Notes: generated by a model from the sequence alone, not told the origin. A stretch of 64,000 nt of DNA from Planctomycetota bacterium (GCA_035527715.1 DATKZY010000096.1:4350-68349), one strand, 5' to 3'. Numbered from the stretch's first letter, positions 6,001-57,946 are shown. Translations and numbers: made by a program.

Positions 6001-8202
6001 AAGCGCCTCGCCTCCGAATCCCTCGCCTACAGCTCGAACATCCATCCCGTCATCCGCAAGAATGCGTCCGACGCGGTCGTCGGCATCCTGTTCTACCTCC
6101 TCCTGGCCGTCCCGTTCGCCCTCTTCGCCGAGAAGCTGCTCGTCGGCCACCCCGACCTGCGGGTGCAGGTGGCGGTCCAGGGCCTCATCTTCCTGCTGTT
6201 CTTCCTGGCGTTGCGGGCGGTGCACCCGGCGGTGCAGCTCGTCCGCAGCCCGTACGTGATCCTGCTGGGCTTCATCACGTTCGCCCTCGCCGCGATGGTC
6301 ACGGCGTTCCTCGGCGGGCGGTTCAAGAAGAACCTGGCGGAGTTGAGCCGCCGTCGCCAGGAGCGCGCCGAGGCGGCCGACGTGTCGCGCGCGGGCGCGG
6401 CGGCCACGGCGTTCGTCCTCGGGCTGTCGAACCTGCGCAAGCGCCCCGTCCGCACCGGCCTCACCATCGGCACCCTCATCCTCACGACGTTCGTCATGCT
6501 CTGCTTCGCGTCGTTCAGCTCGGACGTTGTTGACGTGGAGTTCGCGCTCGGCAAGGCGCCCTACACGGGCCTCCTGGTGCGGGACCGTGGCCTGAAGAAC
6601 GTAGCGGATGCCGCGGCGCCGCTCCGAGAACTCTACGGCGAGGACCACGTGATCGTCCAGCGCGACTGGGCTGGGAACCTCGAGATTCCCTGGGGGAAGG
6701 CGCCCGAGCTGGCCGCGTTCACCGTCGCGTCGGTGGCAGGCGAGAAGACGTTCGAGGCCACGGCGAACGCGATTCTCGGCCTCAGCCGCCGCGAGCCCGA
6801 CGTGACGCCGGTCAAGGGAGCCTTCGACGTGCTCGTCCGTTGGTTCGAATCGAACACCGAGCTGTCGTGCTTCCTGTCGCGGGCGATGGCCGACCAGTTG
6901 CGGGTGGCCGACGAGGCGGTGGAGAAGGGCACGGCGACGGCCAGCGTCGGCGGCCGCAGCTACACGGTGCTCGGCATCTTCGACGGGGCCCGGCTCGACC
7001 GGGTGACCGACCTCGACGGCCAGCCGCTCTTGCCCGTGGACATCTTGTCGGTCCGCAGCCCCGCGCAGGGCGCAGCGGCCTACAGCGAGGAGGCGACGGA
7101 AATCCCCGAGAACGTGCCTCGGCTCGCCGCCGACCGCGTGGTCATCACGCCGGTCGAGGCCATGCCCTCGCGGACCCTCACCGCCTCGGTCGCCGTGGCG
7201 TTCCAGGGCATGGACTACCGTGCGGCGCGGCAGGCGATCACCACGCACCTCGAGCGGTCCGCCGAGCCGACCTATTACGGCCTCGACGGCGTGGCCTTCT
7301 ACGGCGGCAAGTTCCGCATGCAGTCGCTCGAGGGCGTGCTCGACCTCATCCTCCCCATCATCATCGCGGCGCTCACGGTGCTGAACACCATGCGGGGCAG
7401 CGTTTACGAGCGGCGGGGCGAGCTGTACGTCTTCAACGCCGTGGGGCTTTCGCCGAACCACATTCGGTCGCTGTTCCTCGCCGAGGCATCGGTCTACGCC
7501 GTGGTGGGCGCGGTGGGCGGCTACCTGCTGGCACAGGGCGCGAGCACGGCCCTCAGGGCCGCCGGCCTCACGGCGGGGCTGGCGATGAACTACTCGAGCC
7601 TGTCCAGCGTGCTCGTGAGCGTGGTGATCATCCTGGTCGTGCTCGGCTCGAGCCTGTATCCCGCGCGAATGGCCGCGCGCCTCGCCGCCCCCGCCGAGAC
7701 GATGACCCGCCGCCGCGAGACCGCGGCGGGCGATGCCATCGAGCTGGATCTGCCTTTCACCTTCAACCGCCGCGACCGCGTGGCGATTGTGCCCTACTTT
7801 GTGGACTGGTTCGGGGACTACGGCGAGGGCTCGGCGGGCGAGTTCTTCTGCTCGCCGCCCGAGTGCGGCATTCGGGCCGACGAGGCGGGCCAGGCCGAGC
7901 CCTTCGTCGAGACGACCACCTGGCTCAAGCCCTACGACCTCGGCGTGAGCCAGGCGGTGAGCCTGGTTGTGCGGACGATACGCGGCGTGGGGACACGCCG
8001 CCCACAACAGACGGGCGACAACGTGGCCACGGTGGTGATGACGCGCAAGAGCGGCGACAAGGAGTCGTGGGAGCGCTGCTGCCACGCCTTCGTCGGCCTG
8101 CTCCGCAAGCGCTTCCTCACCTGGCGAGCCATCCCCGATGAGGAACGCGAACGCTTGCTCGAAAGGGGGAGGCGGATGTTGGAGGCTGGCCAAGACGCGT
8201 GA
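3034..8202 (+). CDS. Giant (1722 aa) MacB/FtsX-type ABC permease with a large periplasmic N-terminal region that includes a degenerate M28-like pseudo-peptidase domain
   Basis: N-terminal signal/TM (MRKLLSNAALTLVLGGLCIAALFAF). An M28-like stretch DSYSYVPNLAPGAQQACGAAALLSLARHL...ATQGHGQGLAG parallels the M28 motifs H-x-D, GADDNASG and EExGLxGS, but with DD->QQ and EE->GH. The C-terminal part has the FtsX/MacB signatures LRKRPVRTGLTIGTLILTTFVMLCFASFSS, a large periplasmic loop, and then MRGSVYERRGELYVFNAVGLSPNHIRSLFLAEASVYAVVGAVGGYLLAQG. Confidence 0.75.
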   Translation: MRKLLSNAALTLVLGGLCIAALFAFNRAAAPQPCILPPSGVEPPDYKAIAASVTEEGLLNGLRSLCSGPSRCPGVLVRDPQNPGPDVPEDWRWTAEERYVKHTLRGLGFAVYLQPFEVTVPRGEATIESSVELKGIEIHPMEPNWFRTACTPHLGLTGKVFRGEKGLAREFRDVDLRSNFVLLPLGTPWITVAGMGAAAVLYYDDGKQLAGARWGDHVDASVSVPRFFVTGDAASLVGNTVTIRSKVWWTEWGDPNLVAVLDVPNPEGEAVVVNAYCDSYSYVPNLAPGAQQACGAAALLSLARHLSDEKGRLKRSVILLATQGHGQGLAGIREFFRVLGARERREEAIREAEAEEQETLVGYRLARDVAKVAMDDAYWTATTRETENAFWVGKDDSVRRAFYDVLAGFADRELMASVEEVTQRRVDWVRDNLAVRDTEGNETNSFSAYNEARKRQLAAQAALARPPWRLKEQWLNPLGTPADETRDRPQVVKNLIFDAGCRAAEASHRNDKAIARRKLARALGRYQRLLFLGLDLTARSGRIGLVCGEPKQVSACMPADAEVAAQFRLAADRLQAADPSLDYAKTKKGQRRFANLLRGNDTKDLGFATEWYGAPSYFESLAALWAGYPAFSLVTLDDNRETLGTPFDTLDALLKPPASPDEEPPLRNLCVVTRLVTAAVSQLARGHGRIVPLARGSDLTTIRGEVVSQVGDSLTPNHPMPGALVRFGPPLVSGRPTVVPPGVGTDWVVTADWRGRFELPCVWPTALSQDWGAEVDIDAAVVRPEDGEVTWTLSTPKSGEGAPYAVRRVRLAQYQKSQATAVVFRAAPVQMFPMADPATLRPYAGFDFLETKSMAPPQDFKTESSGGTHVCFVPPDSRLYFTFKKGQRRNPSLMEIRAFALGASGPADGSQLEGAPEITGNGYFAADSPSITNLELDASLSMAQVNARRTRLQDRYGMADDMVLRYNEKAEGLADEAQKLAAAGRMVEAKRLASESLAYSSNIHPVIRKNASDAVVGILFYLLLAVPFALFAEKLLVGHPDLRVQVAVQGLIFLLFFLALRAVHPAVQLVRSPYVILLGFITFALAAMVTAFLGGRFKKNLAELSRRRQERAEAADVSRAGAAATAFVLGLSNLRKRPVRTGLTIGTLILTTFVMLCFASFSSDVVDVEFALGKAPYTGLLVRDRGLKNVADAAAPLRELYGEDHVIVQRDWAGNLEIPWGKAPELAAFTVASVAGEKTFEATANAILGLSRREPDVTPVKGAFDVLVRWFESNTELSCFLSRAMADQLRVADEAVEKGTATASVGGRSYTVLGIFDGARLDRVTDLDGQPLLPVDILSVRSPAQGAAAYSEEATEIPENVPRLAADRVVITPVEAMPSRTLTASVAVAFQGMDYRAARQAITTHLERSAEPTYYGLDGVAFYGGKFRMQSLEGVLDLILPIIIAALTVLNTMRGSVYERRGELYVFNAVGLSPNHIRSLFLAEASVYAVVGAVGGYLLAQGASTALRAAGLTAGLAMNYSSLSSVLVSVVIILVVLGSSLYPARMAARLAAPAETMTRRRETAAGDAIELDLPFTFNRRDRVAIVPYFVDWFGDYGEGSAGEFFCSPPECGIRADEAGQAEPFVETTTWLKPYDLGVSQAVSLVVRTIRGVGTRRPQQTGDNVATVVMTRKSGDKESWERCCHAFVGLLRKRFLTWRAIPDEERERLLERGRRMLEAGQDA

Positions 8203-8278
8203 CGCGTGACGCGTGATCAGAGAAGAACAGAACCGCGCTCTTCTGGTCACGGGTCACGCGTCACAGGTCACGCATCAG
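8197..8278. repeat. Long imperfect hairpin built on the GTGACGCGTGAC motif (arms GTGACGCGTGACGCGTGATCAGAGAAGA and TCTTCTGGTCACGGGTCACGCGTCAC)
   Basis: An inverted repeat of about 28 bp with a 12-nt loop, sitting exactly at the junction between the stop of gene B (8200-8202) and the start of gene C. Same family as 12262-12345 and 41905-41925. Confidence 0.6.
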
Positions 8279-12261: not shown

Positions 12262-12264
<3 letters not shown>

Positions 12265-12345
12265 CTCGTGACGCGTGACGCGTGGTCGGAACGCAAGCTG
12301 GCTTGCTCTCTTCCTGTCACGCGTCACGGGTCACGCGTCACGATG
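12262..12345. repeat. Long hairpin of the GTGACGCGTGAC family between the two ABC ATPase genes
   Basis: Arms CGTGACGCGTGACGCGTGGTCGGAA and TTCCTGTCACGCGTCACGGGTCACGCGTCACG, with an inner small hairpin GCAAGCTGGCTTGC. It begins at the stop of ATPase 1. Confidence 0.6.
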
Positions 12346-12373: not shown

Positions 12374-13120
<747 letters not shown>

Positions 13121-13131
13121 CACGAGCGCGG

Positions 13132-13152
13132 AAAAGACACCCGCTGTCTTTT
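13132..13152 (+). terminator. Stem-loop AAAAGACAcccgcTGTCTTTT followed by a T-run (intrinsic terminator-like)
   Basis: Perfect 8-bp stem with a TTTTGCC tail, 12 bp after the stop of ATPase 2. Confidence 0.6.
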
Positions 13153-13181
13153 GCCGGAACGGCCCTGCGGGTGCTTCGCAC

Positions 13182-13202
13182 AAAAGACAGCGGGTGTCTT
13201 TT
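13182..13202. terminator. Second copy of the hairpin (CAAAAGACAgcgggTGTCTTTTCC), inverted relative to the first; the pair looks like a bidirectional terminator
   Basis: It is the reverse complement of the 13132-13152 hairpin arms, so the two together can also form a longer cruciform. Confidence 0.5.
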
Positions 13203-13271
13203 CCGCTTGCCTCTCTGTGGCGCGAATGTGCTACTCACAGTCCCTGCTCGCATCCGACACGAGCCGCGCGC

Positions 13272-13300
13272 TTGACCGCGGCGAACGGGATGCCTATGAT
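13272..13300 (+). promoter_or_regulatory. Sigma70-like promoter: TTGACC, 17-nt spacer, TATGAT
   Basis: Exact -35 TTGACC at 13272-13277 and -10 TATGAT at 13295-13300 with a 17-nt spacer, upstream of the GH32 gene. Confidence 0.6.
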
Positions 13301-13512
13301 GGCTCACCGAGGTCCCGCGAGCGCAGCGGTCCACGGGGCCAAACGTCCAGCCTGGCGGCTCCGAGCACCTGAGCTGGCACTGCTGGGACGTGACGGACCT
13401 CGCCGGCAGAGAGGCTGCGATCCAGGTCGCGGACAAGCGCACCGGCGGCTGGGGCCACATCAACGTGGACCACATCATTCAGAGCGACAGGAAACGCGAG
13501 GAGAAGCCTGCC

Positions 13513-15144
13513 ATGCGGGAACTCGTCGTCGAGAAACGCTACCTCCACCTGCCCGTGAAGAACGGCGCGGCCAAGCAGCGGATGAAGGTGTCGGTGGGTG
13601 ACAAGATCGTGGACGAGTTCGACATCGAGCTGGCCGACGGCGAGCCCGACTTCTGGGTGTTCCTCGACATGGCCCCCTACAAGGGCCAGAAGGCCACGAT
13701 TGATGTCGGCCGTCTGCCCGAGGAATCCAAGGGCCTCGCCGCCATCACCCAGGCCGACGACGTGCCCGACGCGGCGAACCTCTACAAGGAGAAGTACCGC
13801 CCGCAGTTCCACTTCTCGTCGCGCCGCGGCTGGAACAACGACCCGAACGGCCTCGTCTTCCATAAGGGCGAGTACCACCTCTTCTACCAGCACAACCCCT
13901 ACGGCTGGAACTGGGGCAACATGCACTGGGGCCACGCCGTCAGCAAGGACCTGGTGCACTGGACCGAGCTGCCCGTCGCCATCTACCCCTTCCGCTATGG
14001 CGACTGGGTCTACAGCGGCAGCGCCATCGTGGACAAGGAGAACGCGGCGGGGTGGAAGAAAGGCGACGAGGACGTGATCGTCGCCGCCTACACCAGCACC
14101 GGCCGCGGCGAGGCCATCGCTTACTCGCTCAACCGCGGCCGCACCTTCACCGACTACGAGGGCAACCCCGTCGTCAAGCACAGCGGCCGCGACCCCAAGC
14201 TCATCTGGTACGCGGGGTCACATCTTCATTTCGCACTTGGCGGCAAAGTGCCAAATGAAGATGTGACCCCCGGACACTGGGTCATGGCCGTCTACGACGA
14301 GCACGAGGGCAAGCGCTGGATCGCCTTCCACACCTCGCCGAACCTGAAGGACTGGACGTTCCAGAGCCGCACCGAGGGCTATTTCGAGTGCCCCGAAATC
14401 TTCGAGCTGCCGGTGGATGGCGACAAGTCGAAGACCCGCTGGGTCATCTACGCCGCCGACGGGGCCTACGCCGTCGGCTCGTTCGACGGGAAGACCTTCA
14501 CGCCCGACCACCAGGGCAAGCACCGCTTCAACTGGGGCAATTGCTTCTACGCCTCGCAGACCTTCAGCGACATCCCCCCTGAGGATGGCCGCCGCATCCA
14601 GATCGCCTGGGGCCGCATCGGCCACAAGGACATGCCCTTCAACCAGATGATGAACTTCCCCGTCGTCCTCACCCTGCGGACGACCGACGAAGGCGTCCGC
14701 ATGTTCGCCGAGCCGGTCAAGGAGATCGCGCTTCTGCACGCGAAGAAGCATTCGTGGAATGGGCTGACGCTGAAGGAGGGCGAGAACCCGCTCAAAGGCA
14801 TCGAGGGCGACCTGTTCCACATCGTCGCCGAGTTCGAGCCGGGCGACGCGGCGCAGGTCGGCTTCAGCCTCCGGGGCACCCCCGTGGCCTACGACGCCAA
14901 GGCCCAGCAACTCGATGCCAAGGGCTGCAAGGCCGCGCTGAAGCCCGAGGGCGGGAAGATTCGCCTGGAGATGCTCGTGGACCGCACGTCGGTCGAGGTC
15001 TTCGGCAATCGGGGGCGCGTCTACATGCCCGTGGGTGTCATCCCGCCCGAGGACAATCGCTCGATCGAGGTCTTCGCCCGAGGCGGCGCCGCGAAGATCG
15101 TCTCGCTCGAGGTCAACAAGTTGCGTTCCGCCTGGCAGAAATGA
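13513..15144 (+). CDS. Glycoside hydrolase family 32 (beta-fructofuranosidase / levanase-like) carrying an in-frame 57-bp palindromic insertion
   Basis: GH32 motifs are present: WNNDPNGLVFHKGEYHLFYQHNP (NDPNG catalytic block), WGHAVSKDLVHWTELPVA, the RDP block (GRDPKLIWY) and the EC block (YFECPEIFEL). The ATG at 13513 follows a GGAG-rich stretch. An in-frame GTG at 13390 would add 41 aa of protein-like sequence, so the start is uncertain. Confidence 0.75.
   Translation: MRELVVEKRYLHLPVKNGAAKQRMKVSVGDKIVDEFDIELADGEPDFWVFLDMAPYKGQKATIDVGRLPEESKGLAAITQADDVPDAANLYKEKYRPQFHFSSRRGWNNDPNGLVFHKGEYHLFYQHNPYGWNWGNMHWGHAVSKDLVHWTELPVAIYPFRYGDWVYSGSAIVDKENAAGWKKGDEDVIVAAYTSTGRGEAIAYSLNRGRTFTDYEGNPVVKHSGRDPKLIWYAGSHLHFALGGKVPNEDVTPGHWVMAVYDEHEGKRWIAFHTSPNLKDWTFQSRTEGYFECPEIFELPVDGDKSKTRWVIYAADGAYAVGSFDGKTFTPDHQGKHRFNWGNCFYASQTFSDIPPEDGRRIQIAWGRIGHKDMPFNQMMNFPVVLTLRTTDEGVRMFAEPVKEIALLHAKKHSWNGLTLKEGENPLKGIEGDLFHIVAEFEPGDAAQVGFSLRGTPVAYDAKAQQLDAKGCKAALKPEGGKIRLEMLVDRTSVEVFGNRGRVYMPVGVIPPEDNRSIEVFARGGAAKIVSLEVNKLRSAWQK
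14214..14270. mobile_element. 57-bp palindromic MITE-like element, copy 1, inserted in frame inside the GH32 gene
   Basis: GGGGTCACATCTTCATTTCGCACTTGGCGGCAAAGTGCCAAATGAAGATGTGACCCC is a near-perfect inverted repeat. At 57 bp it is exactly 19 codons and encodes AGSHLHFALGGKVPNEDVT, which splits the RDPKLIWY and PGHWVMAV blocks that are contiguous in GH32 enzymes. Confidence 0.75.
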
Positions 15145-27583: not shown

Positions 27584-29239
27584 TCATTCAATCAGGAACG
27601 AGCAGCCTCCCTCGCCCGACTTCTCGATGAGGTCGCTGCGGCGGCCGGCCGTGCCCCACCCACCCGGCGTCACGTGCGTGCAGGGCGGCCAGCCGTTGCC
27701 CGAGAAGACCAGGTCGCCCTCGGGGAAGAGCATCCGCCCCCGCCCATCATACGACACGTAGCCCGCGCGCGCCGGCGGCGCCACCTCGCCCAGGCTCCAG
27801 AAGAAGCCGGCCGACGGCTCGGGCGCCAGCGGCAGCTCGCAGCAACGGGTCAGCTTCTCCCCCTCGATGCGCACTTGGGTGAACCGCTCCTGGCTCGAGA
27901 AGAAGGGGCTCAGCGTCTTCAGGCAGAACGAGCCGGCGTGCACGGGCGACACGCCCTCCAGCTCGAACCTCCACCGCACCGTGTGGCCCTCGGCCCAGGC
28001 CTCGAAGAGGACCCGCTTGCCCGCATTCTCGCGCAGGTAGCTGATGCGCGTGCCGCCGCGCGGAGTAGCCACGAACTGACACGAATGGGCACGAACGCCG
28101 AAGCCGCCCGAAGCCGGTCTCCCGGAACTTCGTGCGGGTTCGTGTGCTTTCGTGGCTATTCCCTCCACTTTCCACGGGATGAACCAGTCGGCCCGCGGCC
28201 GGCTCGGCCACGAGTTGGCCCCGCCGAACTCGTCCCAGTCGCCCTCGGGGCAGTCGAGCACCCACATGCTCTGGGGGAACCAGGGGACGAAGATCGAGAG
28301 CGTCGCCCACTCGGTGGGCACGAGGCGGATGGGCGCCTTGAGATACAGGTCTTCGCGGATGGCGACGGGCTTCGGCGGGTCGAAGCGCTCGACGCGATAG
28401 GCGGCAGGTGTCGCATCTTCATTTGGCACATGGCGGCTATGTGCGAAATGAAGATGCGACACCTCAGCGGGCGGCCCGTCGGCGACGCAGCGGAAGCCGC
28501 TGTCGTAGATGCGCATCTGGTGCGACCACGAGAGCCGGTTCGACGGCAGGAAGGAGTACGCCTGCTTGTGGCAGAAGGCGCCGCCCGCGAGGACCGCGGG
28601 ATTGGGGTCGGCCGAGGCGCCCGCCCGGTTGGTCTGCGGATAGACGACCTTCACCCACTCGCCGACCAGGCCGTAGCTGCCGAGGCCGAAGGGACCGCAG
28701 TCGGCATAGGCGCCCACGGGGATCGCGACGCCGAGGCCCACGTTGCCCGGGTTGCGAAGGCAGAAGCCGTCGCGCCACTCGTTGCCCCAGGGGAAGAGCC
28801 GGCCGTCGTCGCCGCGCCACGCCCGTTCCCACTCGACCTCGGTCGGCAGGCGCTTGCCGAGCCACGCCGCGTAGGCGGCCGCATCCTCCGAGTTGACGCC
28901 GACCATCGGCAGTGCGAGGTTCTCCGGGCTGAAGTGGTGCCAGCCGGTCAGCTCCGCCCAGCCCACGAGCCAACCGTTGTAGAGGATGCTGTAGCCCGTC
29001 TCTTGCATGAAGCGCAGGAACTGGCCGCGCGTGACGGGGTGCTTATCCATCCAGAACTCGCCCGTCTCCAGCTCGCGGCGGTCGGCGTGGAAGTGGAGCA
29101 TGTCGGGATGCACACCGGCCTTCCGCGCCTGCTCGGCCTTCTCGTCGGGCGTGAGGCCGAAGAGCACGTCGCCCGCCGGCACGTGCACCATGGCCCGGTC
29201 GAGTTCCTGGGGGTCGTAGTTGGCAACTGTGTGCCACAT
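27584..29239 (-). CDS. Formylglycine-generating enzyme (SUMF1/FGE) family protein with a roughly 280-aa C-terminal extension that carries an in-frame palindromic insertion
   Basis: FGE blocks MVHVPAGDVLFG, HPVTRGQFLRFMQETGY, RLPTEVEWERAWRG, GLVGEWV, GGAFCHKQ and RIYDSGFRCV. Start at MWHTVANY (CAT at 29237-29239); the longer ORF-track start at 29440 reads through a pseudogene remnant in another frame. Confidence 0.75.
   Translation of the reverse strand: MWHTVANYDPQELDRAMVHVPAGDVLFGLTPDEKAEQARKAGVHPDMLHFHADRRELETGEFWMDKHPVTRGQFLRFMQETGYSILYNGWLVGWAELTGWHHFSPENLALPMVGVNSEDAAAYAAWLGKRLPTEVEWERAWRGDDGRLFPWGNEWRDGFCLRNPGNVGLGVAIPVGAYADCGPFGLGSYGLVGEWVKVVYPQTNRAGASADPNPAVLAGGAFCHKQAYSFLPSNRLSWSHQMRIYDSGFRCVADGPPAEVSHLHFAHSRHVPNEDATPAAYRVERFDPPKPVAIREDLYLKAPIRLVPTEWATLSIFVPWFPQSMWVLDCPEGDWDEFGGANSWPSRPRADWFIPWKVEGIATKAHEPARSSGRPASGGFGVRAHSCQFVATPRGGTRISYLRENAGKRVLFEAWAEGHTVRWRFELEGVSPVHAGSFCLKTLSPFFSSQERFTQVRIEGEKLTRCCELPLAPEPSAGFFWSLGEVAPPARAGYVSYDGRGRMLFPEGDLVFSGNGWPPCTHVTPGGWGTAGRRSDLIEKSGEGGCSFLIE
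28407..28463. mobile_element. 57-bp palindromic MITE-like element, copy 2, in frame inside the FGE-like gene
   Basis: GGTGTCGCATCTTCATTTGGCACATGGCGGCTATGTGCGAAATGAAGATGCGACACC. It encodes SHLHFAHSRHVPNEDATP on the minus (gene) strand; because it is palindromic the plus strand encodes SHLHLAHGGYVRNEDATP. Confidence 0.75.
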
Positions 29240-29306
29240 GGGTTCTCTCCTGGCTGTGTGGATTGCTCCGACTGCCCGCAGGCCGCGTGCGAAGACCGAA
29301 GCTCTA

Positions 29307-29456
29307 TCAAGCAGCTCCCTGCCGCAGCCCCATCGCGGTGCGGAACAGGGCCTCGACGTTAGGATACGGGAAACCTGGGTCAATCTCAATGTAGAGCCAG
29401 GAGCCGCCATCGGCCAGCGCCCAGTCGGCCAGAACGCCATAGCCGAAGGCTGCGCA
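29307..29456 (-). pseudogene. Remnant duplicate of the C-terminus of the URO-D-like gene (31684-32730), lying between the LRR gene and the FGE-like gene
   Basis: The translation ...GGSWLYIEIDPGFPYPNVEALFRTAMGLRQGAA* matches the C-terminus ...AGGSWLYIEIDPGFPWPNVEALFRVAMELRQGATV* of 31684-32730. DNA identity is evident across 29312-29430 vs 31690-31810. No start codon and only about 45 codons. Confidence 0.6.
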
Positions 29457-46400: not shown

Positions 46401-47437
46401 CCAAGGGTGCCCGCGCCATGCGCGGCAGCCTCAACTGCCGCAACTTCAAGTACGACTTCGCCAACCTCTTCGTCCAGAAAGTCGCCGAGAAGGACTCGCA
46501 GGACGCTGCCTTCGTCGCCCTCATCGAGCCCTTCGTCGGCGAGCCGTTCATCACCGGCAAACGGCTGCTCAACGTGCAGGTGGGCAACATGAACGGCACG
46601 CCGAAGAACCTGGGGAACGCGGCCTACAAGGCCGTCGCCGTCGAGGTGAAGACGGCGAATGGCCACACCGACATCTGTTTCGCCGATGGGCTGCCCTTTG
46701 TGGACCGCCTCATCCCGGAGGCCAAGATGCACCTGTCGGGCGAGTTCGCCTGCGTCTCGACCGACAAGGAGGGCTTGCGCCTGGCCACCCTTGCTGGCGG
46801 CATGCTCCTCGAAGCGCCGGGCATCAAGCTCGTGCCCGCCCAGCGCGTGCGGACGGGCAGGGTCGTGAAGGTGGATTACCTTACGAAGACGCTGTGGATT
46901 GACCAGCCCTGGCCCGCGAGCGCGCGGCCGAGCGTCTTCGAGATCGGCGTGCCCGGCCACTGGACCACCTACACGGCGCTCGACGTGAAGCCCGATGGGA
47001 ACCTGACCCGCATCACGGTCGAGAATGGCGCCGACTACTTCCGCTCGGGGATCGAAGAGATCAAGCCCGAGGAGGGCATTGTCCGCTGCGCCCTCGGCCC
47101 CACGATGGGCAACCGCCCCGGCATCAACAAGGGCTGGGTCGCCTCGGACGACGAGATGACGACCTTCTGGCGGGCCGACCTCGTGGGCGACAAGACGTTC
47201 AAGCTCACCGGCGCGCCCGTGACGAAGGAGGCGTTCGGCAAGGCGGGCGTCCTGCGCCTGTGGGAGTATGGCGTCGGCGACACCGTGCGCCAGAGCACGT
47301 TTGTCAACGTCCGCCGCACCGCCGCCGGCCAGTTCGAGCTGACCGCCGATGTAGATGTCACCATCACCCTCCCCGACGGCAAGCCGCGCACCGTCACCGC
47401 CAAGGAGCTGGACGCAGAGGGGAAGGTGCGATGGTAG
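43442..47437 (+). CDS. Large secreted heparinase II/III-like (polysaccharide lyase superfamily) protein, 1331 aa
   Basis: TTG start preceded by AGGAGG at an 8-nt spacing. Signal MSRTLTSLLAVMILASMLALTRA. GFGIGHQHADTMDLQVIAQG matches the Hepar_II_III GHxHxD...F.L...G motif. The stop TAG overlaps the first REP. Confidence 0.8.
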   Translation: MSRTLTSLLAVMILASMLALTRAGEYDTGGALAGYRLPPFPTQHGEKPGQPGELPGKHDSDPLAPCFELNPGSPELYRNYWFKYCPSRSFFDRQSKLKGWVAPNIPGAAKAEDYATPLYWVPRHEAVVNTGLKWKALPVVRCSVGSPVLKLDLGELEIGVYAIRLVAAVPTEQLKPFRTPLYVRAKINDGPKGATNTYRLRLGYCDEFYSIAEIYFHADEKRRFNAEVAVDEGSGVEMLLHEISLDDALAGVERRAIKSRTTLPEARPPAPSNVEPPKEQRLSRDAEVWLAFPHDNAQAFGHGWMGGDEHTLRRNVAIGVPGKTAREIADEFGDWRPGKGDVFLVNKKLQLEYTVADYRKGLPLPAPYPYRDDGAGLFFPDPADPGKGHLWAPIANEVQSRFRNYCGTLVRRNVDKFLKTGDTNAAREAAVALARWAYAFPTIDAANFLLYVTRDPGPYGRDIRCRRRDSTATFYPHYPLYVDPILYDYDRLFDFIKGNAELAESIGRFVPWVKTPQDVVKLIDAYLVQTTAKRILRYHYYTDPMDIANAAAVVGDTKVTDPWMEWLFSKTFIYPLPPVGIADAMITGCCRDGCEYIGSTFYAGGEGASRVAESLERYLTAGGNRKYDLSDKARYPKPVAHCTWRLKNVVAGWDFVRIGDVCGPDKVAGHTLRDLGFARNGWEWTADPRFAFILKHTIGRKEESDDDWAKIEAAAAKLKRAPWLDLRSRVMPMWAGVLESGLEHDDPRFRRAAYVRVGFGIGHQHADTMDLQVIAQGCPATMDGGQRPGYSSPGDGTTRVHNVVEVDGKGFQGYSWVRALADTPGARYLAAEAEPPEGATLFRRQVALIDVDEGQGSKPLPIEAQKPGSKLPAGVTPANSYVFDVFRVAGGKTHTYCFHATVEDDFQWNVADAKPVAEDDASEVGQYLDRFKSLPQKRFAGTAPDLLEATWRQTREPRLFGNEGMHRRPNFSDDLPRRFTRLHLLDAKGARAMRGSLNCRNFKYDFANLFVQKVAEKDSQDAAFVALIEPFVGEPFITGKRLLNVQVGNMNGTPKNLGNAAYKAVAVEVKTANGHTDICFADGLPFVDRLIPEAKMHLSGEFACVSTDKEGLRLATLAGGMLLEAPGIKLVPAQRVRTGRVVKVDYLTKTLWIDQPWPASARPSVFEIGVPGHWTTYTALDVKPDGNLTRITVENGADYFRSGIEEIKPEEGIVRCALGPTMGNRPGINKGWVASDDEMTTFWRADLVGDKTFKLTGAPVTKEAFGKAGVLRLWEYGVGDTVRQSTFVNVRRTAAGQFELTADVDVTITLPDGKPRTVTAKELDAEGKVRW

Positions 47438-48175
47438 GGCGTGCATACTTGCACGCGGAACGAATTGGGGTGACCTCGGCTATCGAAGATTCCGCGTGCA
47501 GGTATGCACGCCCTACCAAGGAGACCGGGCATGCCGCAATATCGCAGGTGGCGGGTCGAGGGCGGCATGTACTTCCTGACGGTTGTGACCCATGAACGGC
47601 GGCGAGTCTTCGCCGCGGAGTGGACGCGACAACTGCTCCGCGAGGCGATCTCAAAGGTGCGAGCCATTCGACCCTTTGAGGTGACGGCGATGGCTCTCAT
47701 GCCCGATCACTTCCACATGCTCTGGCAACTCCCCGATGGTGACGACGATTTCTCAACGCGTCTCGGCTCCATCAAGTACGCGTTCACCCGCGCATACTTG
47801 GCAGCCGGTGGGGAGGAAGGCGCGACAAGCGTGGGGCGGACTCGCCACAGGAATCGCGGGGTGTGGCAGAAGCGGTTCCACGAGCACCGCATCCGCGATG
47901 ACCAGGACTTCACCCGGCATGTGGAGTACATCCACTACAATCCCGTGAAGCACGAATACGCGGATTCCCCGGCGAAGTGGCCGTGGTCGAGCTTCCACCG
48001 TTACGTGAAGCTCGGGCTCTACGGCGAGCAGTGGTGTGACCCGGAGAACGCCGCTGAACTCGGGCCAGAGCCGGGCTTTGAGTGAAGCACGGTAGGGCGT
48101 GCATACTTGCACGCGGAACGAATCGGCGCCGGCGCCAGGGACAAGGGATTCCGCGTGCAAGTATGCACGCCCTAC
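47434..48175 (+). mobile_element. REP-RAYT unit: a tyrosine transposase gene flanked on each side by a convergent pair of REP hairpins
   Basis: REPs at 47434-47461 (+), 47489-47516 (-), 48092-48119 (+) and 48148-48175 (-), all variants of GTAGGGCGTGCATACTTGCACGCGGAAC, which contains the hairpin CGTGCA-TACT-TGCACG. The RAYT CDS lies between them. Confidence 0.85.
47531..48085 (+). CDS. REP-associated tyrosine transposase (RAYT, IS200/IS605 Y1 family)
   Basis: HuH motif PDHFHMLW and the catalytic Tyr block EYIHYNPVKH. 184 aa. Confidence 0.85.
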   Translation: MPQYRRWRVEGGMYFLTVVTHERRRVFAAEWTRQLLREAISKVRAIRPFEVTAMALMPDHFHMLWQLPDGDDDFSTRLGSIKYAFTRAYLAAGGEEGATSVGRTRHRNRGVWQKRFHEHRIRDDQDFTRHVEYIHYNPVKHEYADSPAKWPWSSFHRYVKLGLYGEQWCDPENAAELGPEPGFE

Positions 48176-55500: not shown

Positions 55501-55529
55501 TTGACCGCGGGCGCGCGCGCCGATATACT
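55501..55529 (+). promoter_or_regulatory. Sigma70-like promoter: TTGACC, 17-nt spacer, TATACT
   Basis: TTGACC at 55501-55506 and TATACT at 55524-55529, in a lower-GC intergenic region upstream of the C45-like gene. Confidence 0.55.
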
Positions 55530-55573
55530 GGTCCGAGAAGCTGATACCCCGTGGCATTCGTGGAGAGATTCCA

Positions 55574-57490
55574 TTGAGACAACGTGCTTCGGCGTTCCTG
55601 GCCGGGCTCCTCGCCCTGTCCGCGGCCCTCGGCCTCGCAGGGGAGCCGGCCCCGCCGCTGGCCGCGGCCGACATCGAGGCGCTCTCCAAGTCACTCGAGA
55701 AGGTCGTCGCCGTCGTTCAGGGCAAGCTGCCCGTCTACACGGTGACGCTCGCGGGGCGCTACAAGGACGGCGCGCTCGAGCAGGGGGCCGAGCTGACGAT
55801 CGCGCGCCGCGACGCCGACCAGTTCCGCCTCGCGCTCAAGTCCGACCTCCTCAGCTTCACCCTCCAGCGGACGAAGGACGAGACGGCCCTCGTCGTGCCG
55901 CTGCTGAAGGTGGCCGTGGTGGGCAAGGGGCCGCTGCCGGCCGAGTCGGAGCTTCAGCCCGCGCGCCTCTTCGGCCGCATCGCGGGCCTGTGGCCCGCCT
56001 CGCTCACCGTGCTCGGCGTGATGCAGACGGCAGAGCCGGGGGCCGTGGCCGTGATCGTCCAGGCGTTGCTCCAGATCGCGCGGGCGCCCGACAAGCCGGC
56101 GGGGCACTTCGTGGCGAAGCGCGACCTCGGCGGCGGCACGCTCTCCATCGAGCTGGCCGACGACGGGAAGGCGATCCGCCAGCTCCTGTGGCGCGACGCC
56201 GAGGGCGTCGAGGCCGGCGTCGGCATCGCCATCGCCGAAGAGGCGAAGTTGCCCGCGGAGCCGCTGGCCGACGATGTCGTGGTGGTGAACGTGCCGCGCG
56301 ACGAGCTGGAGCGCACGCTCGGCCGCGGCCTGGGCCGCGCCGCCGAAATCCTCGCACACGAGCAGTCGGGCGGCAAGCTCAAGGACGGCGAGCGCATCGC
56401 CGACCGCGGGCGCCTGGTCATCCGCAAGGGGCAGCGGGTCGCCCTGCTCGAGGGCTCGCCCCTCGAAGTCGGCTTCCAGCACGGCAAGCTCCTCGCGGCC
56501 GAGGCGCGGCGGGTGGCCGACTCGGTGCTCTACGTGGCGGGCCTCTACTACACGGTGACGAAGCGGGAGTGGTTCCTCGACACCTTGCGCGGGGCGCTCG
56601 CGCGGCTCGAGCCGCACGTGCCGCAGGAGTACTGGGACGAGGTGCAGGGCCTGGCGAACGGCTCGGGGCTGGCGCCCGAGGAGGCGCGGCTGGCCAGCGT
56701 GTTCCCCGAGCTGTTCCACTGCTCGGGCTTCGCGCTCTTCGGCAAGGCCACGGCGGGCGGCAGACTGCTCCACGGGCGGGTGCTCGACTACATGACCGAG
56801 CTGGGCCTCCAGCGCGAGGCGGTCGTCTTCGTGGTGAAGAAGAAGGGCGCCATCCCCTTCGCCAACGTGGGCTACGCCGGCTTCATCGGCAGCGTGTCGG
56901 GCATGAACGCCGAGCAGGTGGCCTTCGGCGAGATGGGCGGAAAGGGCGAGGGGCAGTGGGACGGCACGCCCATGGCCATCCTGATGCGCATGGGCCTCGA
57001 ACGGGCCAAGACCCTCGACGACGCCATCCGCATCTTCCGCGAGGCGAAGCGGACGTGTGAGTACTACTACGTCATCTCGGACGGCAAGGGCCCGAGCGCC
57101 GTCGGCGTCGCCGCGACGCCCGACCGAATCGAGTTCGTCAAGCCCGGCGAGGCCCACCCCAGGCTCCCGGCGCCCGTGGACGACGCGGTGCTGCTCTCGG
57201 CCGGCACGCGGCTACAGGAGCTGGTGAAGGCGGTGAAGGCGAAGCACGGGCAATTCGACGAGAAGGCGGCCATCGAGCTGATGAAGCGGCCCGTCGCCAT
57301 GCGGGCGAACCTGCACAACGTGCTCTTCGTGCCGCAGGACCTCGTGTTCCACGTGGCCAACGCCAAGGGGCGGTCGCCCGCGTGCGACCAGCCCTACGTC
57401 CGCTACAGCCTCCGCGACCTGCTCGACGAAATGGCCAGGCCCCTCCCCCCGCCCGGCAGGAAGCCCCGCCGAGGCGGGGATTCCTTCTAG
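55574..57490 (+). CDS. Secreted protein with a C-terminal peptidase C45 (acyl-CoA:6-APA acyltransferase-like) Ntn-hydrolase domain
   Basis: TTG start 45 nt after the -10 box. Signal peptide LRQRASAFLAGLLALSAALGLAG. FHCSGFALFG resembles the C45 autoproteolytic site with a nucleophilic Cys. Confidence 0.7.
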   Translation: MRQRASAFLAGLLALSAALGLAGEPAPPLAAADIEALSKSLEKVVAVVQGKLPVYTVTLAGRYKDGALEQGAELTIARRDADQFRLALKSDLLSFTLQRTKDETALVVPLLKVAVVGKGPLPAESELQPARLFGRIAGLWPASLTVLGVMQTAEPGAVAVIVQALLQIARAPDKPAGHFVAKRDLGGGTLSIELADDGKAIRQLLWRDAEGVEAGVGIAIAEEAKLPAEPLADDVVVVNVPRDELERTLGRGLGRAAEILAHEQSGGKLKDGERIADRGRLVIRKGQRVALLEGSPLEVGFQHGKLLAAEARRVADSVLYVAGLYYTVTKREWFLDTLRGALARLEPHVPQEYWDEVQGLANGSGLAPEEARLASVFPELFHCSGFALFGKATAGGRLLHGRVLDYMTELGLQREAVVFVVKKKGAIPFANVGYAGFIGSVSGMNAEQVAFGEMGGKGEGQWDGTPMAILMRMGLERAKTLDDAIRIFREAKRTCEYYYVISDGKGPSAVGVAATPDRIEFVKPGEAHPRLPAPVDDAVLLSAGTRLQELVKAVKAKHGQFDEKAAIELMKRPVAMRANLHNVLFVPQDLVFHVANAKGRSPACDQPYVRYSLRDLLDEMARPLPPPGRKPRRGGDSF

Positions 57491-57889: not shown

Positions 57890-57946
57890 GGGGTCACATC
57901 TTCATTTCGCACATGGCGGCTATGTGCCAAGTGAAGATGTAACCCC
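57890..57946. mobile_element. 57-bp palindromic MITE-like element, copy 3 (intergenic)
   Basis: GGGGTCACATCTTCATTTCGCACATGGCGGCTATGTGCCAAGTGAAGATGTAACCCC, located upstream of the small membrane protein gene. Confidence 0.75.

Follow-up and report, generated by a model that had tools for sequence, protein, structure and literature searches.

Why should an enzyme gene of a free-living bacterium contain, in frame, a stretch of DNA that reads almost the same on both strands? The question is raised by a locus of 64,000 nucleotides from a Planctomycetota bacterium (GCA_035527715.1 DATKZY010000096.1:4350-68349), which is called the window here and always means the whole stretch. Positions 28407-28463 of the window (GGTGTCGCATCTTCATTTGGCACATGGCGGCTATGTGCGAAATGAAGATGCGACACC) form a 57-nt near-perfect palindrome within an FGE-like gene, the second of three copies in the window and here called copy 2. 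Copy 2 is probably a non-autonomous mobile hairpin element, similar to the Rickettsia palindromic elements (RPEs), that integrates into genes and persists only in an open phase and at permissive loops of the host protein.

The element and its single open phase

Of the 57 positions of copy 2, 52 are the same in its reverse complement. On the minus strand, which is the gene strand, its translation with the flanking residues in brackets is (E)VSHLHFAHSRHVPNEDATP(A), while at the equivalent offset the plus strand gives (M/V)SHLHLAHGGYVRNEDATP. Differences between the peptides are limited to the imperfect places of the palindrome, namely positions 19/39 and 26/32 and the centre. An earlier note, made from the sequence alone, had given the coordinates and both peptides correctly. 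As single-stranded DNA, copy 2 folds into a single hairpin, of -25.4 kcal/mol for the gene strand (z = -10.2 relative to shuffled sequences) and -27.7 kcal/mol for the other strand (z = -11.5).

The same note had described a repeated in-frame palindromic element, and this description is borne out. An 18-nt arm has five matches in the window, where 0.01 would be expected, and defines three full copies (Table 1), which belong to a wider family. The hairpin z score is between -9 and -11.5 for copies 1 and 2 and for the consensus, and -6.7 for copy 3, which is the most degraded of the three (48/57 positions self-complementary). The element also differs in composition from its surroundings. The G+C content of copy 2 is 52.6%, compared with 69.7% for the window, and the codons of the element tend to end in A or T, with a G+C content at third codon positions (GC3) of 39% in a genome where GC3 exceeds 90%.

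A two-arm search pattern that fixed positions 8-23 and 35-50 yielded 53 stretches from the genome collection and more than 112 from metagenomes; 126 distinct sites remain after removal of duplicates. All but one of the 53 stretches are in two Planctomycetota metagenome-assembled genomes (MAGs), VGYV01 from Lake Tanganyika and JBGLNR01, a single scaffold of 5.97 Mb. The exception is a 2.5-kb contig of a Chloroflexota MAG (L035, JBFYUV010000337.1) with a typical copy. In its flanks it shares 78% identity with L060, a Ga0307380 contig that also has a copy, and it is probably a mis-binned contig rather than a case of spread to another phylum. The source of the window is a third, related population (JGI samples 3300031566 and 3300031539), and its DNA shares 77-92% identity with the related loci examined. 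Copy density differs about ten-fold between genomes, from 3 per 64 kb in the window to 18 per 5.97 Mb in JBGLNR.

The encoded peptide is restricted in its distribution as well. A profile of the 19 residues, compared with 1.84 billion representative proteins, matched only 16 at E <= 0.001, two of them (P0103 and P0106) partially and in repeated stretches, which indicates that the family is confined to a narrow lineage. A 60-aa concatenate of peptides yielded one candidate in an index of 5.8 billion proteins. The 14 profile-matched proteins that were read are mutually unrelated. Hosts of the element include FGE and GH32 proteins, a histidine kinase, a helicase-nuclease, TPR proteins and others, and one 1219-aa TPR-like protein (P0093) contains four copies of the segment. 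The family has spread in a narrow clade of Planctomycetota from fresh water and sediment. No paper describing the 57-nt element was found in the literature searched, and no family of Rfam 15 matched it at the gathering score, the best score being 22 bits against a threshold of 67 (miRNA-precursor-like hairpins).

The consensus is GGGGTCACATCTTCATTT-S-GCACAT-G-GCSGC-C-ATGTGC-S-AAATGAAGATGTGACCCC, that is, two abutting terminal inverted repeats of ~23 bp around a GCSGC centre. Across 82 distinct sequences, 98.5% of the cells in the stem are paired. Changes on both sides of a pair account for 64 cells, compared with 17.1 +/- 2.8 after shuffling, and none of 500 shuffles reached 64. Compensatory changes keep the hairpin intact. 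At pair 3/55, for instance, 94 copies have G-C and 32 have T-A, and no copy is intermediate; pair 24/34 is found in four Watson-Crick states, and pair 7/51 is either A-T or G-C. One mismatch is retained. Positions 19 and 39 are C.C in 57 copies and G.G in 54, so that the mismatch is kept in 111 of 126 copies, and they are paired in just 13; this mismatch is the sole mark of the element's orientation. The centre GCSGC is invariant although the pattern left it free. The invariance of the two arms is uninformative, since the pattern fixed them.

The variable positions (3, 7, 19, 24, 26, 29, 32, 34, 39, 51 and 55) are paired in the hairpin or lie in its loop, and most of them alter the encoded residue (G/V, F/L, P/R, H/L, G/S, G/R and H/Y/N/D/K/E). 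Since they follow hairpin pairing and not codon position, the constraint acts on the DNA rather than on the peptide. Hairpin integrity is alike in genic and non-genic copies. The same termini are also found around other centres, in a 99-nt and a 66-nt variant, and one copy of 27 nt is internally deleted; all of these lengths are multiples of three.

Only one reading phase of the element is free of stops. Offset 0 contains TGA on both strands and offset 2 contains TGA within GTGACC in consensus copies, which leaves offset 1. Genes were called from composition, without a gene finder, and coding signal was defined as GC3 >= 0.80 together with a G+C content at first codon positions above that at second positions. 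Such signal is present on both sides of 59 of the 126 copies, running through offset 1 in each; at 42 it is present on one side only (gene or contig ends) and at 25 it is absent. Among the 126 sites, no copy interrupts a gene in a closed phase. The exclusive use of offset 1 matches the outcome expected if purifying selection removes insertions that contain stops.

The earlier note had suggested that the element is constrained to be translatable in both orientations. No separate constraint of this kind is called for, because the DNA is its own reverse complement and its one open phase is automatically open on both strands. Both orientations are used in genes: on the sense strand, 40 copies have the C..C form (F...P) and 49 the G..G form (L...R), p = 0.40, and no replichore or orientation polarity was seen among the 18 copies along the JBGLNR scaffold.

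Insertion sites in two enzyme genes

The open reading frame (ORF) that holds copy 2 extends over 27584-29440 on the minus strand and encodes 618 aa. Its 91 FGE homologues cover only 89% of this ORF and all start at the position of M67 (MWHTV...), so the true start is probably at window position 29242, to judge from the alignment. The Pfam FGE-sulfatase domain occupies residues 83-319 of the 618-aa ORF. Copy 2 corresponds to residues 327-345 (261-279 counted from M67), beginning eight residues past the GFRCV end of the domain. The earlier note had placed copy 2 inside a C-terminal extension downstream of the FGE fold. It does come after that fold; by the Pfam limits and the structural model, it lies not inside the C-terminal domain but in the linker before it. 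The C-terminal ~270 residues are a conserved, confidently modelled beta-rich domain. In an AlphaFold2 model built with 77 homologues, the mean per-residue confidence (pLDDT) is 90.5 and the predicted template-modelling score is 0.90. Confidence falls below 50 in three segments only, 261-273 (the element), 372-392 (a second insert) and 529-533.

Comparison with homologues suggests how the linker looked before. Among 25 aligned FGE homologues, the element is found, apart from the window protein, only in P0001, a VGYV-type orthologue. The equally close P0002-P0006 (83-85% identity) and 19 more distant homologues have a short linker, ~PPDGLVxxPAY, instead. The segment is thus a derived insertion. 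The earlier note's reading depended on the existence of orthologues without the segment, and 24 of the 25 aligned homologues are of this kind. At the DNA level, the ancestral ...GAC GGC CTC GTG ACC GCG CCA... has become ...GAC GA[57 nt]T GCG CCC.... The same in-frame copy is present in four independent assemblies (L044, L057, L109 and L165). The exact window protein was looked up with both choices of start and is not on record.

Copy 1 lies in a gene for a GH32 fructosidase, in a turn between the RDPKLIWY and HWVMAVY strands of the catalytic beta-propeller. The window protein reads YA[GSHLHFALGGKVPNEDVTP]GHW. Of the 17 close homologues listed, all but P0122 have YAPGKHW or something close to it, and the empty site is seen as DNA in L170. 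The insert splits the Pfam Glyco_hydro_32N match into two stretches, and an alignment with the exo-inulinase of PDB 8i12 has a gap directly after RDPKxxWY. The AlphaFold2 model (pLDDT 87.6) has one long stretch of low confidence, residues 278-290 (below 50), between strands 267-274 and 296-305. The host protein is 100% identical to P0108, which was assembled independently in two JGI samples.

In both hosts, then, the insert is derived and absent from close orthologues, and the models place it in a linker or turn of low confidence. The GH32 orthologue P0122 (84% identity) has a different insert of 33 residues, GRDGWMNGGMDGKKEKKPIHPSIQSSTHPAPS, in the same turn after RDPKLIWY. Judged by its peptide, this is probably another palindromic repeat family. 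Two unlike inserts in one turn argue for tolerance of the loop and not for site-specific targeting. The possibility that the peptide forms a self-contained beta-hairpin, with Gly-Gly at the dyad centre, was not supported: in both hosts AlphaFold2 models it as coil at pLDDT below 50, from alignments in which only 1-2 rows contain the insert.

The FGE gene has a second, unrelated in-frame palindromic insert of ~33 residues (IATKAHEPARSSGRPASGGFGVRAHSCQFVATPR), with CACGAA/TTCGTG motifs and a hairpin z of -4.85. It is shared with P0001 only, is modelled with pLDDT below 50 and evolves fast, with nonsynonymous divergence (dN) 0.23 and synonymous divergence (dS) 0.15.

Upstream of the GH32 gene, homologues of ~708 aa have ~125 additional N-terminal residues compared with the window ORF. 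The matching frame in window 12950-13400 is broken by stops just upstream of TGPNVQPGG, beside a palindrome at 13128-13206. The gene may be 5'-truncated or lack a signal-peptide region. Also upstream of the GH32 gene, two stretches match the same part of L050 (904-1591), at 80% and 71% identity, and this match indicates a tandemly duplicated gene.

The window contains other palindromic repeat families as well: a GACGCGTGAC-type one, a hairpin of 79 nt (GCGGAAAAGACACCCGCTGTCTTTTG) and two copies, each 88 nt long, whose arms are TGGTAGGGCGTGCATACTTGCACGCGGAA. The compositional gene map places every one of them at gene ends or in intergenic DNA, which is the classical extragenic pattern.

Table 1. 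Positions of the element, its hosts and other features (window numbering unless a locus is named)
Feature	Position	Strand	Remarks
Copy 1	14214-14270	+	in frame in GH32 fructosidase gene; peptide GSHLHFALGGKVPNEDVTP
Copy 2	28407-28463	-	in frame in FGE-like gene; peptide VSHLHFAHSRHVPNEDATP
Copy 3	57890-57946		extragenic, between gene 55505-57490 and gene starting 57985
FGE-sulfatase-domain gene with conserved C-terminal beta-rich domain	27584-29242	-	PF03781, E 2.9e-34
GH32 gene	13390-15144	+	DUF4980, Glyco_hydro_32N and Glyco_hydro_32C; host of copy 1
Second palindromic insert of the FGE gene	28067-28157	-	unrelated to the 57-nt element
Stretches matching L050 904-1591	11590-12251; 12424-13084		80% and 71% identity, respectively
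Other palindromic repeats	8194-8276; 12262-12343; 13128-13206; 47432-47518; 48090-48177		gene ends or intergenic
Partial tandem duplications and nested copies	L039 6292-6363; L021 1520-1621; L092 2004-2108; L030 4724-4828; L036 33-129
99-nt variant	L003 275-373		same termini, other centre
66-nt variant	L031 138-203		same termini, other centre
27-nt copy	L010 1320-1346		internally deleted

Integration, persistence and competing explanations

Related genomes differ in the presence of the element, and filled and empty states could be compared at 27 independent sites. Part of the target is always missing from the filled site: 6 nt in 11 cases, 9 nt in ten, 12 nt in three, and 3, 5 and 7 nt in one each, never 0. 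The two values that are not multiples of three (5 and 7 nt) belong to sites at gene ends. For FGE and GH32, outgroups show that the empty state is ancestral, so target bases disappear when the element inserts. In four nested copies the target is known, being the element itself; 9-10 nt of it are replaced, and all four lie in the AAATGAAGA/TCTTCATTT box. Directly outside the ends, the neighbouring base is T (A at the opposite side) at a frequency of 27%, compared with 15.5% expected (p = 2e-6).

Two ideas about the target were tried and rejected. Some empty sites contain GTGACC/GGGGTC, which resembles the element termini, but anchored matches number 69 against a null of 75.9 +/- 5.5. Nor does the missing 6-9 nt of target survive as the centre of the element: the centre is GCSGC without variation, and it is unlike the stretches that were replaced.

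In the proposed mechanism, the element would move as a hairpin or through one, by means of an enzyme encoded elsewhere that would recognise the conserved termini, the 19/39 mismatch and the GCSGC centre. Integration would not be directed to any phase. Instead, insertions would be removed by selection wherever they fall in one of the two phases with stops or in a structured part of the protein. The segment would be translated as a 19-residue surface loop without a function of its own, and the similar peptide of the other strand would be a by-product of palindromy.

Several points weigh against such an element. Ordinary MITEs, the miniature transposable elements with inverted repeats, duplicate their target site, and this was seen at 0 of the 27 sites, where 3-12 nt of target are missing instead. 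No transposase or autonomous parent with the element's termini was found in the 1.25 Mb of loci examined. When these loci were scanned with nhmmer, intact, truncated and nested copies turned up, but hardly any full-length copies in decay. Decay at old sites would be expected of a purely selfish element, yet orthologous copies are near-identical while their flanks have diverged by 12%. Finally, translation of the segment within host proteins is inferred from the phase statistics.

In the same loci, no two solo arms were found with an ORF between them. A stretch of 478 bp in L024 that has similar arms at its ends was considered as a parent insertion sequence and set aside because it has no convincing ORF. 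REP-associated tyrosine transposases (RAYTs, of the Y1/HUH type), with which REPs and REPINs are associated, were not seen in the loci examined, which cover only a small part of each genome.

The conservation of orthologous copies is puzzling. The earlier note had proposed a comparison of dN/dS between the segment and its flanks, and the outcome was unexpected. Copy 2 and its orthologue in L044 have 0 differences in 57 positions, including five copy-specific variants common to both, whereas ~8.8 differences would be expected at the divergence of the gene. Outside the element, dS is 0.50 and dN 0.097 for the gene, and dS is 0.40 over the 60 codons to either side. In ~nine orthologous pairs between genomes, the element differs at ~10 of 513 positions (2%) and the flanks at 12%. 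At positions that the search pattern left free, the same pairs differ at 7 of 225 (3%). These pairs are few, and the pattern by which both of their members were found demands 32 intact positions. In one case (L010 compared with L034/L110) the asymmetric core is flipped. Correction templated by the hairpin would produce covariation and not slower divergence, and the retention of private variants argues against gene conversion or simple homogenisation. On these sequence comparisons, a purely selfish model seems unable to explain the near-invariance, an anomaly that appears real but is unconfirmed.

It would be explained if the hairpin were a structural motif maintained by the host, an alternative that is unlikely on the whole. 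According to this model, each copy would be kept by selection on its nucleotide sequence, since the hairpin, in DNA or mRNA, would be bound or processed by a protein of the host or the element, and its mobile origin would have become secondary, as in a REPIN-like domestication. The low divergence of copy 2 and of the other pairs, the private variants and the near-lack of decayed copies all speak for such maintenance. So do the retained mismatch, the invariant centre and the persistence of AT-ending codons in so GC-rich a genome. Likewise, the other palindromic insert of the same FGE gene evolves fast. The size and selection of the pair set reduce the weight of the divergence figures. Presence and absence vary freely between close genomes, and copy number varies with them. 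The copies favour neither orientation, whether judged relative to genes or by their order on the JBGLNR chromosome, and the host genes are unrelated, with insert positions best explained by tolerance.

Selection on the 19-residue peptide itself is very unlikely. As a His-rich module (SHLHxAHGGH...NEDVTP) it might bind metal or serve as an interaction loop, and its conservation, its three to four histidines and the four copies in P0093 would agree with that. The variable positions of the DNA, though, are those of the hairpin and mostly change the residue, synonymous sites are as frozen as others, and extragenic copies are equally intact. Both AlphaFold2 models leave the peptide without secondary structure, in hosts that have nothing to do with each other.

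Hardly credible, too, is the idea that the hairpin guides excision of the segment from mRNA or DNA, leaving a host protein without the 19 residues. Such excision would account for the conservation of a nucleotide-level hairpin inside genes. It would also tolerate any phase, yet all 59 internal copies (59/59) are in the stop-free one, and this exclusive use contradicts any removal before translation. Furthermore, it would not restore the 2-4 residues lost at integration. Bacterial mRNA splicing of such a kind is not known.

A chance palindrome or assembly artefact can practically be dismissed, as nothing was found to support it, the matches in the window far exceed the 0.01 expected, and the FGE and GH32 copies recur in the separate assemblies and samples named above.

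Known repeats and the meaning of the element

Palindromes within coding DNA have been described as RPE-1 to RPE-10 in Rickettsia, and also in Wolbachia and Methanocaldococcus jannaschii, according to PMC10969869, PMC2996958 and PMC1779305 (which cite Ogata et al. 2000, 2002, 2005; Claverie & Ogata 2003). An open frame on the opposite strand has been predicted for such palindromes (PMC2996958, citing Claverie & Ogata 2003). For the guanylate kinase of R. conorii, enzyme assays comparing forms with and without the insert are reported (Abergel et al. 2006, cited in PMC2996958). Like the RPEs, the present element is a dispersed palindrome, both intergenic and coding, that lies in frame in many unrelated genes. 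In both cases the insertions are at non-structured parts of proteins and have proliferated in particular lineages; here they are derived and at the surface. RPEs measure 100-150 bp and inhabit AT-rich reduced genomes, whereas this element has 57 bp, forms a near-perfect single hairpin and inhabits 70% GC, free-living Planctomycetota. Also unlike RPEs, its orthologous copies are almost invariant and its integration removes 3-12 nt of target. As length and phylum differ from those of the RPE families, membership by descent is not claimed, and the likeness is one of behaviour.

Other short repeats resemble the element in part. Repetitive extragenic palindromes (REPs) are imperfect palindromes of 20-40 bp with a GTAG or CGTC tag at one end, and they include intragenic families (Di Nocera et al. 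2013, PMC3733652). Both are short hairpin palindromes, and some REP families in ORFs encode 20-30 residues, as in Opitutus terrae of the PVC superphylum. The present element ends in GGGGTCAC and GTGACCCC, without either tag. A REPIN consists of two inverted REP units and is mostly extragenic, while this element is one hairpin and mostly intragenic. REPINs are long-lived, vertically inherited and conserved, and in this they are like the orthologous copies described here.

Bacterial MITEs (Correia, ERIC, RUP and others) leave target-site duplications (PMC10969869). They share with the element a small, non-coding nature, terminal inverted repeats and size variants (57, 66 and 99 nt here) with the same termini, and they too occasionally create in-frame fusions. 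The difference is in the target, which is lost here rather than duplicated. PARCELs are likewise dyad-symmetric coding DNA, but they form tandem arrays of 25-residue domains in dedicated ORFs and are not single insertions in housekeeping enzymes. The attC sites of integrons, finally, have R''/L''...L'/R' boxes with RYYYAAC and GTTRRRY ends and lie between gene cassettes. The ends of the present element do not fit these and its copies are inside genes, so that only length and a conserved unpaired base are alike.

A stronger model goes beyond the RPE-like reading; it is tentative and on the whole unlikely. In it, the family would be more than an ordinary selfish repeat in decay. The hairpin element would have a novel integration chemistry, replacing ~6-9 bp of target and preferring the AAATGAAGA box when nesting, and its copies would be under purifying selection at the nucleotide level across species-level divergence. 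If this were true, a trans-acting protein would continuously recognise the termini, the C.C/G.G mismatch and the GCSGC centre, in a long-term partnership like that of REPINs and RAYTs, mainly inside protein-coding sequence.

On the RPE-like reading, selfish DNA in coding genes, of the kind known from Rickettsia, would not be peculiar to reduced intracellular genomes and would occur also in large, GC-rich genomes of free-living Planctomycetota. Ordinary enzymes are affected, including the catalytic propeller of a GH32 protein two strands from its RDP motif. In annotation, inserts of this kind break up domain matches and give rise to apparent "novel extensions"; they also mark natural permissive sites for the insertion of loops into proteins. 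If target deletion and near-invariance hold, the element would be a tractable case of a new mechanism of hairpin transposition, and would bear on how non-autonomous repeats are maintained rather than left to decay.

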